Source of the DNA: Clostridiaceae bacterium
GTDB taxonomy: Bacteria > Bacillota > Clostridia > Oscillospirales > Acutalibacteraceae
DNA: 64,000 bases
Direction: 5' to 3'
NCBI GenBank assembly: GCA_016287385.1
Contig: JAEEWM010000005.1
Span: 8,746-72,745, forward strand
Shown: positions 3,342 through 33,615 of the stretch, piece by piece
How positions within the stretch are numbered: the first letter of the stretch is position 1
Layout: each line of letters opens with the position of its first letter
Notes under the pieces: model-generated
Databases searched by the model: none
The model's input: only the letters and a program-made list of their open reading frames with translations
What the model was told of the DNA's origin: nothing
Made by a program: the position numbers and the translations under genes

Positions 3342-4445
3342 ATGAAAAAAGTTTTTTGTGTGATTCTTGTTATCAGCGCTCTTTTCGCCGCGGGATGTCC
3401 GGTTTACGCCGTCTCGGCGAAAGCGGCGGTTGTCATAAACGGCGATACGGGTGATATCCTCTATTCAAATAACGCCGATGTGCGGCTGCCCATGGCGAGC
3501 ACGACTAAAATAATGACCGCCCTGATACTGCTTGAAAACTGCGCCGACCTTGACGGCGAGATAGTGACCGCAAAGGAAATGGTTACGGTAGAGGGCTCGT
3601 CAATGGGTCTGCTTGAAGGTGACAGGGTATCATATCGCGCTCTGCTTTACGGTATGATGCTTGCCTCCGGCAACGACGCCGCGAATACTGTGGCGATAGC
3701 TATCGGCGGCAGTGTTGAAAAATTTGTCGGTATGATGAACGCAAAAGCCGCCGAACTGAATCTGAAAAGCACTCATTTCGTGACGCCCTCCGGTCTTGAC
3801 GCCGAAGGGCATTATACAACGGCGTACGAGTTGGCGCTGATTACCCGCGAGGCGCTTAAAAATCCAGATTTCGCGCTTGCCGCCGCGGCAAAAAGCGCAA
3901 CGCTCTGCTACGGAAACCCGCCGTATCGCAGAACGCTTACAAATCATAACAGGCTCCTTTTTATGTATGACGACGTAATAGGCGTCAAAACCGGGTTTAC
4001 GAAGAAATCGGGCAGATGCCTTGTATCCGCCGCCAAAAAGGACGGCAAATACGTAATAGCCGTGACGCTTAACGACGGCGACGACTGGGCTGACCACCGC
4101 TTTTTGCTTGACGCGGGGCTCGGCGCCATAGAGGTTTACGATTATAAGCAGGAGAGCAAAACCTTATCCATCCCCGTGATAGGCGGCGAGTTTGAAGCGG
4201 TCGAAGGGGTCGCCGGCGCCGCCGGGTTTTCAATAACCAAGGGACAGGACGTAAAGATAGCGGTTTGCGCTCCGCGTTTTCTGTACGCGCCGGTTGAGGA
4301 AAACGCCGTCGTCGCAAGTATAGAGTATTACGGCGCCGGCAGACTTTTATATAAAAGCAATGTGACGGTAAAGCGCGTCGGTGAAAAAAAGATTTCAAAG
4401 CTCAATCTGTTTTTTGAAATATTCAAAATCATTCTCGGGAGTTAG
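3342..4445 (+). CDS. serine-type D-Ala-D-Ala carboxypeptidase (PBP5/DacB-DacF class)
   Basis: Signal peptide, then SxxK (ASTTK), SxN (SGN) and KTG motifs in canonical order. ATG 3342 chosen; the ORF-track start is 3333. Confidence 0.85.
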   Translation: MKKVFCVILVISALFAAGCPVYAVSAKAAVVINGDTGDILYSNNADVRLPMASTTKIMTALILLENCADLDGEIVTAKEMVTVEGSSMGLLEGDRVSYRALLYGMMLASGNDAANTVAIAIGGSVEKFVGMMNAKAAELNLKSTHFVTPSGLDAEGHYTTAYELALITREALKNPDFALAAAAKSATLCYGNPPYRRTLTNHNRLLFMYDDVIGVKTGFTKKSGRCLVSAAKKDGKYVIAVTLNDGDDWADHRFLLDAGLGAIEVYDYKQESKTLSIPVIGGEFEAVEGVAGAAGFSITKGQDVKIAVCAPRFLYAPVEENAVVASIEYYGAGRLLYKSNVTVKRVGEKKISKLNLFFEIFKIILGS

Positions 4446-14541: not shown

Positions 14542-15783
14542 ATGCGATATGTTAAACTGATTTTCAGGATATTGTTTTTTACGGCGCTGCTGTTCTGCGT
14601 TACGGTGTTTACCGCTGTTATAGTTATGAACAAAACGGTCAGCCGCGAGTACAAAATAAACCGCGGCGACACCTTCAGAATCGAGTCATCCATACCGGTA
14701 ACGGTGGATTTCAAAGGGGCGAAAGCCTCGATAGAGGATTACTGTAACGTAGGCGACGTATTTGACGTGGATTTGAAAATTCTCGGTGTAATACCGTTCA
14801 GTAAGGCGAGCGTCACGGTGGTGGATGAAACCTACGTTTCTGTGCTCGGTACGCCGTTCGGTATGAAAATATACACCGACGGTCTGCTTGTGATATCTAC
14901 CGGCAGGGTCGAAACGAAATCCGGCGCGGTAAACCCCGCCGAAGACGCGGGCGTTAAGGTCGGCGATTATATAAAGAGCGTAAACGGCGAGCGGATAAAC
15001 TGTAACGAGGACCTGGTGACCGCGGTCATAGAAAGCGGCGGCGAAACACTCAAACTCGAAATAACGCGGGAGGGTAAAGCGCGTGAAGTGTCGGTAACTC
15101 CCGCGCTTGATAAGGACGATAACCTCTACCGTATAGGAGTGTGGGTGCGCGACAGCTCCGCGGGCGTCGGAACGCTCACCTTTTACAGCCCGGTAAGCGA
15201 CGTGGTGTGCGGACTCGGTCACGGTATATGCGACCGTGACACGGGCAAACTGCTCGTGCCCGAGCGCGGCGAGCTGGTCGGTGCGGAAATAATATCGGTC
15301 ATAAAGGGCAACGCGGGTGAACCGGGCGAGCTTAAAGGCAGATTCACGGGGGAGAGAATATCCGATATGGCTCTTAATTCGGATAACGGCGTTTACGGTA
15401 ATCCTTATGAACCGCTTGATACCTCGAAGCTCACGAAAGTCGCGTATAAACAGGATATCAAAAACGGCGACGCGCAGATACTTTGTACCGTTTCGGGCGG
15501 TAAGCCGAAGCTTTACTCCTGCCGCGTTCAGAAGCGCGCGGGCGCTTACGATTATGAAACGCAAAACATGATAGTCACCGTGACCGATAAGGAGCTTATC
15601 GCCGCCACGGGCGGAATAATACAGGGTATGTCGGGCAGTCCGGTACTTCAAAACGGCGAGCTTATAGGCGCCGTGACCCACGTTTTTGTCGACGACCCCA
15701 AAAGGGGCTACGCCGTCTTTGCCGAAAATATGCTCGACACCGCGGCGGGCGTCGCGAAAAGACGCCTTAAAAAGGCGTCCTGA
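14542..15783 (+). CDS. spoIVB: stage IV sporulation protein B, SpoIVB peptidase (S55)
   Basis: N-terminal TM, PDZ region, and the S55 catalytic region GGIIQGMSGSPV. Confidence 0.9.
   Translation: MRYVKLIFRILFFTALLFCVTVFTAVIVMNKTVSREYKINRGDTFRIESSIPVTVDFKGAKASIEDYCNVGDVFDVDLKILGVIPFSKASVTVVDETYVSVLGTPFGMKIYTDGLLVISTGRVETKSGAVNPAEDAGVKVGDYIKSVNGERINCNEDLVTAVIESGGETLKLEITREGKAREVSVTPALDKDDNLYRIGVWVRDSSAGVGTLTFYSPVSDVVCGLGHGICDRDTGKLLVPERGELVGAEIISVIKGNAGEPGELKGRFTGERISDMALNSDNGVYGNPYEPLDTSKLTKVAYKQDIKNGDAQILCTVSGGKPKLYSCRVQKRAGAYDYETQNMIVTVTDKELIAATGGIIQGMSGSPVLQNGELIGAVTHVFVDDPKRGYAVFAENMLDTAAGVAKRRLKKAS
15759..15779. repeat. left copy of the 21-bp direct duplication flanking element copy A
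   Basis: AAGACGCCTTAAAAAGGCGTC, identical to 16085-16105. It is itself a hairpin and lies inside the last codons of spoIVB. Confidence 0.95.
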
Positions 15784-16084
15784 GCGTGTCGAAAAAGTCG
15801 ACACGCTCTCGGACGGGAATTCCGTTCGCCGAAAATTGAAAATTTTCGGACTGCACTCCACTCCCGCCAATACCACCCACGCCCCTTGAAAATCGCCTTT
15901 TCGTGTTTTTTGCTTATCAGAAGCAATTATTCAAGGAACGGAAATGATTTGTTTTTTCGTTTACCGCAATCATGAAAATGCGATTTTCGCCTATAAGGTG
16001 TTTTTCCGCCGCGCATGTCACCGGAAAAACAAAATGCGCAGCTCACGCCGCGCGGATCTCAACAACAGGTTTTCAGGCATACTG
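15780..16084 (+). mobile_element. structured ~305-bp non-coding repeat element, copy A
   Basis: Aligns along nearly its whole length with the reverse complement of 25124-25425. It is a chain of hairpins with no ORF conserved between copies, and is bounded by a 21-bp direct duplication. Confidence 0.7.
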
Positions 16085-16105
16085 AAGACGCCTTAAAAAG
16101 GCGTC
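16085..16105. repeat. right copy of the 21-bp direct duplication (ghost spoIVB 3' end)
   Basis: Same 21-mer. Read in the spoIVB frame it continues TCT TAA, reproducing the ...KKAS-stop ending. Confidence 0.95.
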
Positions 16106-16148
16106 TTAAACGTGCGCCCGGATTTTTGCGAAATACAGCTTTTTGCCC

Positions 16149-16177
16149 TTTACAAACACGGCGTTTCGTGGTATATT
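16149..16177 (+). promoter_or_regulatory. sigma-A type promoter of the beta-helix gene
   Basis: TTTACA, 17 nt, TATATT, with TGg immediately upstream of the -10. Confidence 0.55.
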
Positions 16178-16206
16178 TCATTTGAGAAATTTCGGAGGGC
16201 GATTCT

Positions 16207-20402: not shown

Positions 20403-21608
20403 ATGGGACTTATTAAAGCAGGCATTGGCGCGCTCGGAGGCACTCTTGCCGATCAGTGGAAAGAATTTTTCTACTGCGATTCCCTCGACGCCGACGTAAT
20501 GGTGGTTAAAGGGCAGAAGCGTATCTCTTCGCGTTCGTCCAATACAAAGGCAAACGACAACATCATTTCAAACGGCTCCGGCATTGCCGTTGCCGACGGT
20601 CAGTGTATGATAATCGTCGAGCAGGGCAAGGTCGTTGAGGTTTGCGCGGAACCCGGACAGTTCACCTACGATACCTCTACCGAGCCGAGTATTTTTACCG
20701 GCAAGCTTTCCACAAGCATTAAGGAATCGTTCAAGACCATAGGTAAGCGTTTTACCTACGGCGGCGATACCGGTAAGGATCAGCGCGTTTATTATTTCAA
20801 TACCAAGGAGCTTATCGATAACAAATTCGGTACGCCTAATCCGATACCGTTCCGCGTTGTAGATAAAAACATAAATCTCGATATCGACGTATCGGTACGC
20901 GCTTCCGGCGTTTATTCTTATAAAATAGCCGACCCGCTGCTGTTTTACGCAAACGTTTGCGGCAACGTTGAGGAAGAGTATTTAAGAGAAAACATCGATA
21001 CTCAGCTTAAAACCGAATTTGTAAGCGCGCTTCAGCCGGCGTTCGGCAAGCTTTCTGCTCTGGGACTTCGTCCTAACGAGATAGTCACACACAATACCGA
21101 GCTTGAAAGCGCCATGAACGAAGCGCTCTCATCCAAATGGCGCGAGCTTCGCGGTCTTGAAGTCGTTACGGTAGCTCTCGGCAGCGTTACGCTTCCCGAA
21201 GAGGATCAGGAGCTTATCAAGAATGCTCAGCGCGCGGCTATACTCCGCGACCCGACCATGGCGGCGGCAACTCTTACCGGCGCTACCGCGGACGCGATGC
21301 GTACGGCGGCGGGCAACCAGAACGGAGCTATGGCAGGCTTTATGGGTATGGGCATGGCAATGAACGCGGCAGGCACCATGGGTACGCAGAACCTCTACGC
21401 CATGGGCGCTCAGCAAAACGCGCAGAACGCGCAAAACGCTCCGGCGGCAGGCGCTGTCGCGGGCGGCTGGGTATGCGAGTGCGGTGCTCAGAATACCGGC
21501 AATTTCTGCACCAACTGCGGCAAGCAGAAGGCGACAGGCTGGGTATGCGAGTGCGGCGCGCAGAACACCGGCAATTTCTGCACCAACTGCGGTAAGGCGA
21601 AGCCGTAA
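20403..21608 (+). CDS. SPFH/band-7 family protein with tandem C-terminal zinc ribbons (COG4260, YdjI-like)
   Basis: MGLIKAGIGALGG start, SPFH-like core, a Gln/Ala/Met-rich linker, and two GWVCECGAQNTGNFCTNCGK ribbons. Confidence 0.7.
   Translation: MGLIKAGIGALGGTLADQWKEFFYCDSLDADVMVVKGQKRISSRSSNTKANDNIISNGSGIAVADGQCMIIVEQGKVVEVCAEPGQFTYDTSTEPSIFTGKLSTSIKESFKTIGKRFTYGGDTGKDQRVYYFNTKELIDNKFGTPNPIPFRVVDKNINLDIDVSVRASGVYSYKIADPLLFYANVCGNVEEEYLRENIDTQLKTEFVSALQPAFGKLSALGLRPNEIVTHNTELESAMNEALSSKWRELRGLEVVTVALGSVTLPEEDQELIKNAQRAAILRDPTMAAATLTGATADAMRTAAGNQNGAMAGFMGMGMAMNAAGTMGTQNLYAMGAQQNAQNAQNAPAAGAVAGGWVCECGAQNTGNFCTNCGKQKATGWVCECGAQNTGNFCTNCGKAKP
21465..21605 (+). repeat. in-frame 72-bp tandem duplication encoding the zinc ribbon
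   Basis: Units 21465-21536 and 21537-21605 are near-identical at the DNA level: GWVCECGAQNTGNFCTNCGKQKAT and GWVCECGAQNTGNFCTNCGKAKP. Confidence 0.9.
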
Positions 21609-24311: not shown

Positions 24312-25091
24312 ATGGCTGGCTTTTTCGGTCTTTTTAATTACGAAAAGGAAGGACCCGGTATTGATAAGGACGCGCCGAAGAAAAAAACCTTCGTTGTGTT
24401 TTTTGAAATGTTCAAAATAAACTTTTGGAAGTTTATCCCGATAAATCTCGTTTTTTTGCTTTTGAACGTGCCGCTTTTAACCGGCGGTCTTGCAAACGCG
24501 GGTATCACGCATGTTGTAAGGAACACGGCGAGGGATAAGCATTCCTTCGGTATGAGCGATTTTTTCGAGACAATAAAGAAAAACTGGAAGCAGTCGCTTA
24601 TAGCCGGCATAATCAATATTGTAATACTGTTTCTTGCGACCTCCGCGGCGTGGTTCTATTTTAAGGAGTACAGCGCAACGGGTCGGATCATATGGCTTGT
24701 CGGTTTAAGCGTTACGCTTTCGCTTCTTATGATATTTACCTTTGCTAAGTTTTATATCTGGACTATGCTTATCACCTTTAACCTGCCGCTTTCCGCAATA
24801 TATAAAAACGGCTTCAGGTTTGCGTTTATAAATCTTTTCCGTAATATTCTGGTCGGTCTGCTTTTGCTTGTCACCTATGCGATTTACGGCGTTCTTATCT
24901 GGTTTTTGCCCGGACCGCTCAGACTTATTGTGATACTTCTCGCCGTATGTACTCTGCCGGCTTACAGATATCTTATGATACAGTTTGCGGCTTTCCCGGC
25001 TATAAAGAAGTATATGATAGACCCGTATTACGAGGAGCACCCGGATATGGATATTGAAAAACGCAGGAATTTAGGACTTTTAGACGAATGA
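24312..25091 (+). CDS. YesL family (DUF624) membrane protein
   Basis: MAGFFGLFNYEKEGPGIDKD...F..F..F..NFWKFI start is typical of DUF624, followed by multiple TM helices. Confidence 0.7.
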   Translation: MAGFFGLFNYEKEGPGIDKDAPKKKTFVVFFEMFKINFWKFIPINLVFLLLNVPLLTGGLANAGITHVVRNTARDKHSFGMSDFFETIKKNWKQSLIAGIINIVILFLATSAAWFYFKEYSATGRIIWLVGLSVTLSLLMIFTFAKFYIWTMLITFNLPLSAIYKNGFRFAFINLFRNILVGLLLLVTYAIYGVLIWFLPGPLRLIVILLAVCTLPAYRYLMIQFAAFPAIKKYMIDPYYEEHPDMDIEKRRNLGLLDE

Positions 25092-25094
25092 GAT

Positions 25095-25123
25095 CATCCG
25101 GCAGGATCACCCTGCCGGATATT
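25095..25123. repeat. left copy of the 29-bp direct duplication flanking element copy B
   Basis: CATCCGGCAGGATCACCCTGCCGGATATT, identical to 25426-25454. Contains the hairpin ATCCGGCAGG/CCTGCCGGAT. Confidence 0.95.
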
Positions 25124-25425
25124 GCTGTTAAAAGCCCGTTTTCAACTATTTGCGCAGCGTGAGCTGCGCATTTTGTTTTTCCGGTGACATGTGCGGCGGA
25201 AAAACACCTTATGAGCGAAAACTGCCTTTTTATGATTACGGTAAACAGAAAAACGGAATAATCTATGCTTCTTTAATAATTGCTTCTGATAAGCAAAAAA
25301 TACGAAAAGGCAGTTTTCAAGGGGCGTGGGTGGTATTGGCGGGAGTGGAGTGCAGTCCGAAAATTTTCATAATTTTCGGCGAACGGAATTCCCGTCCAAG
25401 AGCGTGGCGGCATTTTCGACACGCG
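25124..25425 (-). mobile_element. structured ~302-bp non-coding repeat element, copy B (inverted relative to copy A)
   Basis: Its reverse complement aligns with 15780-16084. On the plus strand it begins with the terminator-like TGCGCAGC-gtga-GCTGCGCA plus TTTTGTTTTT (25151-25180). Confidence 0.7.
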
Positions 25426-25454
25426 CATCCGGCAGGATCACCCTGCCGGATATT
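25426..25454. repeat. right copy of the 29-bp direct duplication
   Basis: Identical 29-mer, 331 bp from the left copy. Confidence 0.95.
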
Positions 25455-25495
25455 TCTATACCCCTTTGTCATAAAATTATGACGGAGGGGTTTTT

Positions 25496-25783
25496 ATGAT
25501 ATGCAGAATTGACGAAATGAAGGATAAACAGGTCGTCTGTGTAAACGACGGCTGCGTTCTCGGTTACGTTTCGGATATTGAGCTTGATACCGAAAAAGGC
25601 GTGCTGACCTCTGTTGTTATCTACGGCAGACTTCGGTTTTTCGGTCTTCTCGGCAGGGACGAGGATATTGTTATACCGTTTGAGGATATTAAGGTCATCG
25701 GGGAGGAGACCGTGCTCGTTTCAACACAATGCGGCGCCGGTTTTGCCGGAACCGGGACTAAGAGGCGCTTTACTACCTTGTAA
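25496..25783 (+). CDS. ylmC: YlmC/YmxH family sporulation protein (PRC-barrel)
   Basis: ICRIDEMKDKQVVCVNDGCVLGYVSDIELD...GRDEDIVIPFEDIKVIGEETVLV pattern. Confidence 0.85.
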   Translation: MICRIDEMKDKQVVCVNDGCVLGYVSDIELDTEKGVLTSVVIYGRLRFFGLLGRDEDIVIPFEDIKVIGEETVLVSTQCGAGFAGTGTKRRFTTL

Positions 25784-32969: not shown

Positions 32970-33053
32970 GCGGGTGTGGCGGAATTGGCAGACGCGCCAG
33001 ACTTAGGATCTGGTGTCACCGACATGCAGGTTCGATCCCTGTCACCCGCACCA
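32970..33053 (+). tRNA. tRNA-Leu(TAG): tRNA-Leu (anticodon TAG)
   Basis: Acceptor GCGGGTG/CACCCGC, anticodon arm CCAGA-CTTAGGA-TCTGG, long variable arm, T-arm GGTTCGATCC, encoded CCA. Confidence 0.9.
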
Positions 33054-33460: not shown

Positions 33461-33536
33461 TGGTGACCCGGACGAGATTCGAACTCGTGTTACCGCCGTG
33501 AAAGGGCGGTGTCTTAGGCCTCTTGACCACCGGGCC
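33461..33536 (-). tRNA. tRNA-Glu(TTC): tRNA-Glu (anticodon TTC)
   Basis: Minus strand reads GGCCCGGTGGTCAAGAGGCCTAAGACACCGCCCTTTCACGGCGGTAACACGAGTTCGAATCTCGTCCGGGTCACCA. Cloverleaf is intact and CCA is encoded. Confidence 0.9.
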
Positions 33537-33538
33537 GG

Positions 33539-33615
33539 TGGTGGCTGTAATTGGATTCGAACCAATGACACTCCGGGTATGAACCGAATGCTCTAGCCAA
33601 CTGAGCTATACAGCC
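33539..33615 (-). tRNA. tRNA-Met(CAT): tRNA-Met, elongator type (anticodon CAT; Ile2-lysidine not excluded)
   Basis: Minus strand reads GGCTGTATAGCTCAGTTGGCTAGAGCATTCGGTTCATACCCGGAGTGTCATTGGTTCGAATCCAATTACAGCCACCA. G1-C72 pair and no GGG/CCC anticodon stem, so it is not an initiator. Confidence 0.85.

Follow-up and report, generated by a model that had tools for sequence, protein, structure and literature searches.

Two probable miniature transposon insertions between duplicated terminator hairpins in a Clostridiaceae genome

A stretch of 64,000 nucleotides from contig JAEEWM010000005.1 of a Clostridiaceae bacterium (hereafter the window, whose positions are used unless another locus is named) carries two related non-coding elements, copy A on the forward strand and copy B on the reverse strand. 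The original prediction for this locus described a conserved long-range helix in both copies, with compensatory base changes between them, and attributed it to selection on secondary structure, of either RNA or single-stranded DNA. The locus therefore raises two questions: what kind of sequence the copies are, and what keeps their helices paired. We put at about 80% the probability that copies A and B are independent insertions of a miniature, non-coding, non-autonomous transposon resembling transposable elements of the miniature inverted-repeat type (MITEs), and that each insertion duplicated a transcription terminator hairpin. The original prediction had missed this arrangement, in which the copies lie as mobile-element insertions between duplicated terminator hairpins and related strains have empty sites.

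To collect further copies, an exact 22-mer from the core of the element was searched against species-representative genomes, which gave ten loci: nine in the Acutalibacteraceae metagenome-assembled genome (MAG) JAZNOA01, each on a different contig, and one in a Clostridia MAG from buffalo reticulum. A gapped pattern added three metagenome loci (L013, L014 and L015; loci are designated by L numbers). L013 and L015 are one locus in two assemblies and hold a copy 97% identical to copy A in another genomic context, and L014 holds a short-form copy of the window clade. The resulting set comprises 14 copies from at least three genomes. The genomic contexts (two in the window, at least nine in JAZNOA01, one in the buffalo reticulum MAG and three metagenome contigs) are unrelated. 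Copy lengths range from 174 to 307 nt, with short forms of about 190–230 nt and a window lineage of about 305 nt; copy A gives an nhmmer match with E=4e-66. The element has no coding capacity: indels of 1–2 nt and variable loop lengths break every frame, and there is no conserved start codon. The claim that reading frames are not conserved thus holds between clades as well as between the two copies on which it was based.

The evidence that these copies are insertions comes from their borders, which in the window are as follows.

15760..15780 (+): left terminator stem-loop copy at A, AGACGCC-TTAAAAA-GGCGTCC, repeated directly over 21 nt at 16086-16106
15781..16085 (+): copy A of the element in its long form, 305 nt, running from TGAGCGTGTCGAAAAAG to GGCATACTGA, identified by alignment with copy B and 12 others and with boundaries set by the flanking repeats
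16086..16106 (+): right terminator stem-loop copy at A, AGACGCC-TTAAAAA-GGCGTCT, the direct repeat of the left one
25096..25120 (+): first target copy at site B, the terminator stem-loop that serves the DUF624 gene (24312-25091)
25121..25426 (-): copy B of the element, also in long form, about 306 nt, inverted with respect to A, both ends more decayed than those of A
25427..25451 (+): second terminator stem-loop copy at site B, an exact repeat of 28–29 nt including 3–4 flanking bases

Direct repeats border all well-preserved copies, and the repeated unit is a complete G+C-rich stem-loop of 17–29 nt. The repeat is AGACGCCTTAAAAAGGCGTC(C/T) at copy A and ATCCGGCAGGATCACCCTGCCGGAT plus the 3–4 flanking bases at copy B; elsewhere it measures 27 nt at L013/L015 (AGCGGCAGGGATTTGACCCTGCCGCT in L013), about 18 nt at L005 (AGCRCCGTTATGGTGCT), about 20 nt at L009 and 26–27 nt at L014 (GCGCGGCGGTGTAATTCACCGCCGCG). 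Because these hairpins, which vary by locus, sit after stop codons and the downstream copy retains a T-tract, they are the intrinsic terminators of the host genes. At site A, the left hairpin overlaps the last codons of a SpoIVB-like gene (14542-15783; Peptidase_S55 and PDZ domains). The open reading frame (ORF) now ends TCC TGA (15778-15783), with the TGA supplied by the terminal TGAG of the element, whereas the right hairpin copy reads TCT TAA (16104-16109), presumably the original end; the reading frame is preserved and the protein is unchanged by the insertion. Insertions occur in either orientation. About 8 of 10 scorable insertions, as read from the T-tract, point in the same direction as the gene behind which they landed, a bias that is not significant, and copy B and the copy in L007 are antisense to the neighboring gene.

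Related strains retain the uninterrupted form of site B, which lies between the DUF624 gene and ylmC. Seven contigs of the same species, encoding an identical 95-aa YlmC-like protein, have a single hairpin there, ATCCGGCAGGYATCACCCTGYCGGAT, followed by ATTTTTG, whereas the window, L018 and L023 read hairpin-element-hairpin at the same position. One contig (ERZ27279995:k141_94491) contains element A and has an empty site B, which makes the two insertions separate events and shows insertion B to be polymorphic in the population.

We also considered L029 (3689-3939), which lacks element A and reads GGCGTC-CTGAGCG-CGCCCGG, as a candidate ancestral empty site for copy A. This candidate was rejected because L029 keeps 7 nt (CTGAGCG) identical to the occupied left junction and because its single-nucleotide polymorphisms place it beside the window strain, inside the insertion-bearing clade. 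L029 also lacks the right hairpin copy plus 9 nt, and we read it as the product of an imprecise secondary deletion of 328 nt (window 15787-16114) or as the footprint of an excision. Clean microhomology is lacking at the ends of the deletion, whose left break coincides exactly with the internal TGT.

The ends of the element are imperfect terminal inverted repeats (TGAGAGTGTCGACAAAG versus TCAGACTGTAGACAAAT), with the consensus 5' TGAG[C/A]GTGTCGA[A/C]AAAG ... CTACAGTCTGA 3'. Between the two ends, full-length MAG copies have 14 matching positions of 22 and the window clade has 11–12 of 22; random 22-mers match at 5.5 positions on average, with P(≥13)=0.005. A second family shares these termini (TGAGCGTGTCGATAAAG ... 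TTTTAGACAGACTGA). It is represented by elements in L009 (5268-5600, +) and L006 (338->1, -, running to the end of the locus), is about 333 nt long with G+C-rich hairpins and an unrelated interior, and has no match in Rfam; interior fragments lie in L005 (~820-904) and L006 (~3443-3549). In L009, the second-family element lies between two copies of the thrS terminator hairpin, AAGGATGCCAAACGGCATCCTT. In L006, a copy of the first family precedes the second-family element head to tail, with one hairpin between the two, which shows repeated insertion at the same hairpin. The same process explains a 66-nt exact direct repeat in L014 (12038-12103 and 12296-12361), composed of 39 nt of element tail and the 27-nt terminator hairpin, which we interpret as a tandem insertion at one hairpin, after which most of the first copy was deleted.

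A second non-autonomous family with the same ends implies a common enzyme. Multicopy dispersal, hairpin duplications, empty sites and this second family are together the hallmarks of a non-autonomous DNA transposon mobilized in trans, and the element agrees with MITEs in being small and non-coding, in having inverted repeats and target duplications, and in its copy number and empty sites. We propose that a transposase encoded elsewhere would recognize the imperfect terminal inverted repeats. An enzyme of the DDE type would make staggered cuts at the two bases of a terminator hairpin, perhaps after its extrusion as a cruciform, and repair of the gaps would then duplicate the whole hairpin, leaving one on each side of the element. 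In the co-oriented case, the upstream hairpin would meet TGAGCG in place of its T-tract, and transcription would read into the element as a 3' untranslated region (UTR) extension and end at the downstream hairpin.

Several observations weigh against the transposon interpretation. The inverted repeats are weak in the window clade. L029, although without element A, falls short of a clean empty site. The left end is missing from six or seven copies, whose flanking repeats are truncated or unclear, and these are hence not intact MITEs; the core is 100% identical between copies A and B whereas the ends are 65–86% identical, which is unusual for a purely selfish MITE. Finally, a terminus scan found no transposase gene between these termini in the window, the 41 fetched loci or viral contigs, and mobilization in trans is therefore our inference. 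Copy A had no blastn match in plasmid and phage collections; viral contigs scanned with two core patterns and a terminus pattern yielded nothing or chance matches in coding sequence; and an nhmmer profile and terminus patterns run over the window and all fetched loci returned only known copies and second-family fragments, with no full-length insertion sequence (IS). The copies lacking the left end do share a pattern: all start at one position (..TTGGCGGG) and lack the terminal palindrome P1, and their left flanking repeat is cut inside the hairpin, which suggests recurrent deletion between the two adjacent palindromes.

By analogy of behavior, the closest precedent is IS1630 and ISMhom-1 of the IS30 family. 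The title of Calcutt's 1999 report, as cited in PMC3317919, points to duplication of a whole inverted repeat. IS1630 of Mycoplasma fermentans inserts at inverted repeats or terminators and duplicates the whole inverted repeat of 16–26 bp (PMC3317919), and ISMhom-1 of M. hominis does the same at gene 3' ends, keeping ORFs intact (PMC7648426). As with both, the duplicated target here is the symmetrical inverted repeat of a terminator, variable in length and sequence, and as with ISMhom-1 the spoIVB ORF is intact after an insertion at its 3' end. The likeness is one of behavior: IS1630 and ISMhom-1 are autonomous IS of Mollicutes, 1.2–1.4 kb long, that have their own transposase gene and inverted repeats of 27 bp, whereas the element here is 190–305 nt long, non-coding, found in Clostridia and bounded by weak inverted repeats of ~16–22 nt. 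A second comparison is with IS1202, which comes from a Firmicute. The IS1202 group makes target duplications of 16–28 bp with no known target preference and has ends of the form 5'-TGT...ACA-3' (PMC10132070). Here a TGTCGA/TGTAGA motif lies 6 nt inside both ends, but the outermost bases are TGAG.../...CTGA, and this comparison considers ends and duplications alone.

Among bacterial MITEs (Correia/CREE, ERIC, BOX/RUP/SPRITE, QMITE and bcr1), transcripts are predicted to fold stably and some yield small RNAs (sRNAs) (PMC10969869). The element resembles them in being small, non-coding, multicopy and intergenic, with inverted repeats and target duplications. It differs in that a typical MITE duplication is 2–9 bp and A+T-rich, whereas here a whole G+C-rich terminator hairpin of 17–29 nt is duplicated, and in that the interior consists of several independent covarying hairpins and a conserved unpaired core rather than a single long foldback. 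To our knowledge, a MITE with a whole terminator hairpin as its target duplication has not been described, and the insertion sequences documented to target and duplicate whole terminator hairpins are few and belong to Mollicutes. We regard the element as a new, MITE-like family within a known class, with a rarely documented, hairpin-duplicating choice of target. The same behavior now appears in uncultured gut and rumen Clostridia, in at least two miniature families and with presence/absence polymorphism between strains, which suggests an active transposase with structure-specific target choice. Such elements would rewrite the 3' ends of genes without loss of termination or reading frames and create tandem arrays of hairpins and elements.

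The second question is what maintains the helices. The internal features of the two copies are listed below, where P1, P3, P4 and P5 are internal hairpins of the element's conserved design.

15782..15808 (+): P1, terminal palindrome GAGCGTGTCGA-AAAAG-TCGACACGCTC, whose 5' arm is the left terminal inverted repeat
15829..15849 (+): P3, hairpin CCGAAAATT-GAA-AATTTTCGG, with double-sided changes at three pairs among the copies
15850..15887 (+): C-rich core ACTGCACTCCACTCCCGCCAATACCACCCACGCCCCTT, mostly unpaired in the predicted fold, its CCCGCC(AA) able to pair with an upstream GG(A)CGGG
15888..15896 (+): P4 5' arm of copy A, GAAAATCGC
15897..15979 (+): ~83-nt expansion in the P4 loop, lineage-specific, predicted by folding to contain P4b (TTTTCGTG/CATGAAAA) and the hairpin TTGCTT-ATCAG-AAGCAA
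15980..15988 (+): P4 3' arm of copy A, GCGATTTTC
16000..16030 (+): P5, hairpin GTTTTTCCG-13 nt loop-CGGAAAAAC, the loop with conserved GCAC/GCGC-ATGTC
16036..16053: P6, hairpin GCGCAGC-TCAC-GCCGCGC from a terminator scan, with ATTTTGTTTT next on the minus strand, terminator-like
25309..25318 (-): P4 5' arm of copy B, GAAAACTGCC
25217..25226 (-): P4 3' arm of copy B, GGCAGTTTTC

The helix that drew attention to this locus is P4, and its two arms are complementary at these coordinates in both copies, as originally described. In a pairwise alignment, two neighboring pairs are altered on both sides (T-A/C-G in copy A versus C-G/T-A in copy B), and a tenth pair forms in copy B only. The 2-nt insertion of copy B likewise lies within the loop of P3 and leaves its 9-bp stem unbroken. 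What failed is the assertion that the ~90 nt inside the helix are the least conserved part: the enclosed ~83 nt are 82% identical between A and B and the lowest value, 65.5%, belongs to the 3' tail. A helix of this size is not by itself beyond chance, since 22% of shuffles that match copy A in composition also contain one 9-bp inverted repeat within 120 nt. However, copy A has eight such 9-mer matches, a number reached by only 0.05% of shuffles, and P4 recurs and covaries in 12 further copies.

P4 is long-range only in the window lineage. In the short relatives, it is the stem of an ordinary hairpin with a loop of 4–7 nt (GAAAACCGCY...RGCGGTTTTC), for example GAAAACCGCC-TTATTT-GGTGGTTTTC or, in L014, GAAAATCGCC-TTATAAG-GGCGATTTTC; in L008, the stem is longer and extended. 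The ~83-nt expansion that separates the arms is present in the window copies, L013 and L015 and absent in 10 of the 14 copies, the closely related L014 included, and judged by this distribution it is probably a lineage-specific loop expansion, unless L014 lost it. P4b lengthens the stem in the fold of copy A and is not kept in copy B. Thus the helix is indeed conserved and stays paired through changes on both sides, and its long-range character is a property of one lineage.

The original prediction had proposed a test for covariation among homologs, and across the 14 copies P3, P4 and P5 do covary. RNAalifold applied to the 14-copy alignment (A2) recovers four helices, namely P3, P4, P5 and a long-range CGGGA/UCCCG pairing that encloses P3 and is nearly invariant, hence uninformative on covariation. 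In this small sample of 14 related copies, 96.8% of the P3, P4 and P5 cells are in standard pairs, compared with 94.0% in shuffles (0 of 500 reach the observed value) and 35–65% in slid controls. Pairs altered on both sides number 7, compared with 3.0±1.0 in shuffles (0 of 500 reach 7) and 0–2 in slid controls. In P4, pair 116/207 is C-G in ten copies and U-A in four, pair 117/206 is C-G in 13 and U-A in one, and pair 118/205 includes one G-U; in P5, pair 231/247 is C-G in eight, U-A in five and U-G in one. With the CC/GG state of the remaining genomes as reference, lineage A altered one P4 pair and copy B the adjacent pair, and at least two separate double changes are therefore needed. P6 is less constant: a hairpin occupies its position in several clades, with no conservation of sequence. 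Folding of both strands is far better than in shuffles (z of -4.7 to -5.6).

Four further pairings or resemblances were tried and rejected. A pseudoknot between the P5 loop (GCGCAT) and a downstream ATGCGC is perfect only in copy A and L013 and is mismatched or bulged elsewhere, and an outer extension of P4 (CCTT/AAGG) is broken by variants in L002, L013, L008 and L009. The core contains no CCUCC motif that could mimic an anti-Shine-Dalgarno sequence, and P1, considered as a 27-nt dif-like recombination site (11+5+11), has nothing beyond its shape in its favor.

That the hairpin structure is maintained is established, but that it is maintained by selection on an RNA is unproven. Its upkeep may reflect selection on a folded RNA or single strand, or DNA-level processes acting on palindromes and repeat copies. 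The interpretation in the original prediction is supported in part. Selection is not the sole route to concerted changes in both arms, because near-identical strains show a clustered change of both P3 arms in element A. These orthologs of element A (the window compared with L026-L028, L030 and L031) differ by 4.3%, versus about 1% in the flanks, and the differences are clustered. P3 (15829-15849) changes from CCGAAAATTGAAAATTTTCGG to CCGAAATTTTGAAAATTTCGG by four differences, with both arms altered (CCGAAAATT-GAA-AATTTTCGG to CCGAAATTTT-G-AAAATTTCGG), and the palindrome is still perfect; five adjacent differences fall in the P5 loop (16009-16021); and three of four tail differences make the L026-type copy match L013, which is another locus.

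One explanation for these results is that no selection is needed: quasipalindrome template switching would correct the arms and gene conversion would homogenize the copies. Concerted multi-base changes over so little divergence do look like arm-templated repair or gene conversion between copies. Several features fit such repair poorly. The P4 arms of the window copies are 83 nt apart, which makes templating within a hairpin less likely; three uncompensated mismatches have built up in P1 of copy B, a sign that repair of palindromes is not automatic; and the conservation of a single-stranded core is unexplained by arm-templated repair, although gene conversion could account for it. We regard this explanation as a serious contender, with somewhat better odds than the other accounts of the helices, though still short of an even chance.

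A slightly less probable explanation, which is compatible with a MITE, casts the element as chiefly a structured RNA gene or module (an sRNA or part of a 3' UTR) in which helices P2 to P5 and the core would be under selection as RNA, with mobility serving merely to spread it. The covariation in three helices is consistent with this idea, as is the core, whose 38 nt are identical in copies A and B while the ends decay. On the plus strand of the element four cells are G-U, and 13 of 14 copies also have a U-G closing pair, compared with two A-C cells, an excess that leans weakly and not decisively toward an RNA of that strand. A change from G-U to A-U in L004 and L008 fits a GGCGGR/TTCGCC pairing. 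The co-orientation of most scorable insertions also points this way, in that the upstream hairpin has no T-tract and read-through would express this strand.

Against this RNA explanation, a search of 15700-16200 with Rfam 15 found no family even at E≤10, where the best E values were 2–6 and far under the gathering threshold, and a scan of copies A and B found no promoter-like site inside the element. The antisense placement of copy B and the L007 copy, together with the lack of significance of the 8:2 orientation bias, argues in the same direction. Concerted arm changes between near-identical strains are also faster than selection on independent substitutions predicts. Conservation of the core is in part an artifact, because copies were found by exact-match searches with core sequences. 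The 14 copies have only two variable sites in its first 34 nt, and its last few nt vary between clades; regions outside each search pattern are nearly invariant as well, and search bias is therefore not the whole explanation. The contrast between core and ends hints at an additional function.

The transposon and RNA explanations can be combined. It is conceivable, if rather improbable, that the element is a mobile RNA module and not plain selfish DNA. Duplication of the terminator hairpin, with loss of the T-tract from the upstream copy, would then install a conserved, covarying fold of P2 to P5 around an invariant 38-nt C-rich single-stranded core in the 3' UTR of the gene ahead of it. This combination explains why the core is conserved above the transposon ends, which a plain MITE does not. 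If it is correct, the module may act as a regulatory or stabilizing RNA or as an RNA cofactor of its own transposase.

We also considered a derivative of a single-stranded DNA transposon (IS200/IS605-type, or IS91- or Helitron-like) whose hairpins would be recognized by an HUH transposase. Several stable hairpins, one of them at the very left end, and strong folding of both strands would suit such an element. However, IS200/IS605 and IS91 are not known to make target duplications, whereas long target duplications and terminal inverted repeats are present here. The left flanks share no motif, with no conserved tetra- or pentanucleotide before the left end, and no TnpB/IscB guide-RNA family was matched in Rfam. 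We consider this origin highly improbable. Least probable of all, and barely worth entertaining, is an origin from a class C group II intron or other retroelement, of which the element would be a fragment or an ORF-less derivative: intrinsic terminator stem-loops are the homing signal of class C introns, the insertions here adjoin such hairpins and several copies lack the 5' end, but these introns are ribozymes of at least 600 nt with a reverse-transcriptase ORF that are not known to duplicate the hairpin, whereas the element is only 190–305 nt long, matches no group II intron in Rfam, has a duplicated flanking hairpin unlike the outcome of retrohoming, and in its 5'-less copies shares one start point rather than random positions.

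Of these possibilities, insertion of a MITE-like transposon best accounts for copies A and B, with the helices belonging to the element. A caution for annotation follows: covarying helices in intergenic repeats may belong to mobile DNA and not necessarily to a functional RNA.

Other observations concern the copies and the genes around them. On the antisense strand of the element (window 16036-16053, -, and 25151-25170, +), P6 followed by ATTTTGTTTTT scores as intrinsic-terminator-like, and the element could stop transcription arriving from its 3' side. Copies A (+) and B (-) form inverted repeats of ~305 nt that bracket about 9 kb of housekeeping genes. Inverted repeats of this kind, 300 nt long and 9 kb apart, could drive inversions through homologous recombination; none between A and B was seen in the related contigs examined. 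At the gathering threshold, Rfam finds only three transfer RNA (tRNA) genes in the whole window.

32970..33050 (+): tRNA gene
33464..33536 (-): tRNA gene
33542..33615 (-): tRNA gene

Beyond site B, a 14-bp hairpin, ACCCCTTTGTCATAAAATTATGACGGAGGGGT, followed by TTTTT lies directly upstream of the ylmC-like start codon at 25496 (25460-25495, +). Its 3' arm holds a GGAGGGG ribosome-binding site and it is identical in 9 of 9 aligned strain sequences; it could be a translational or attenuation control element. Within the ORF at 20403-21608, tandem 69-nt repeats (21465-21533 and 21537-21605, +; 90% identical, 72 nt spacing) encode a repeated Cys-rich, zinc-ribbon-like segment (GWVCECG..NFCTNCG).

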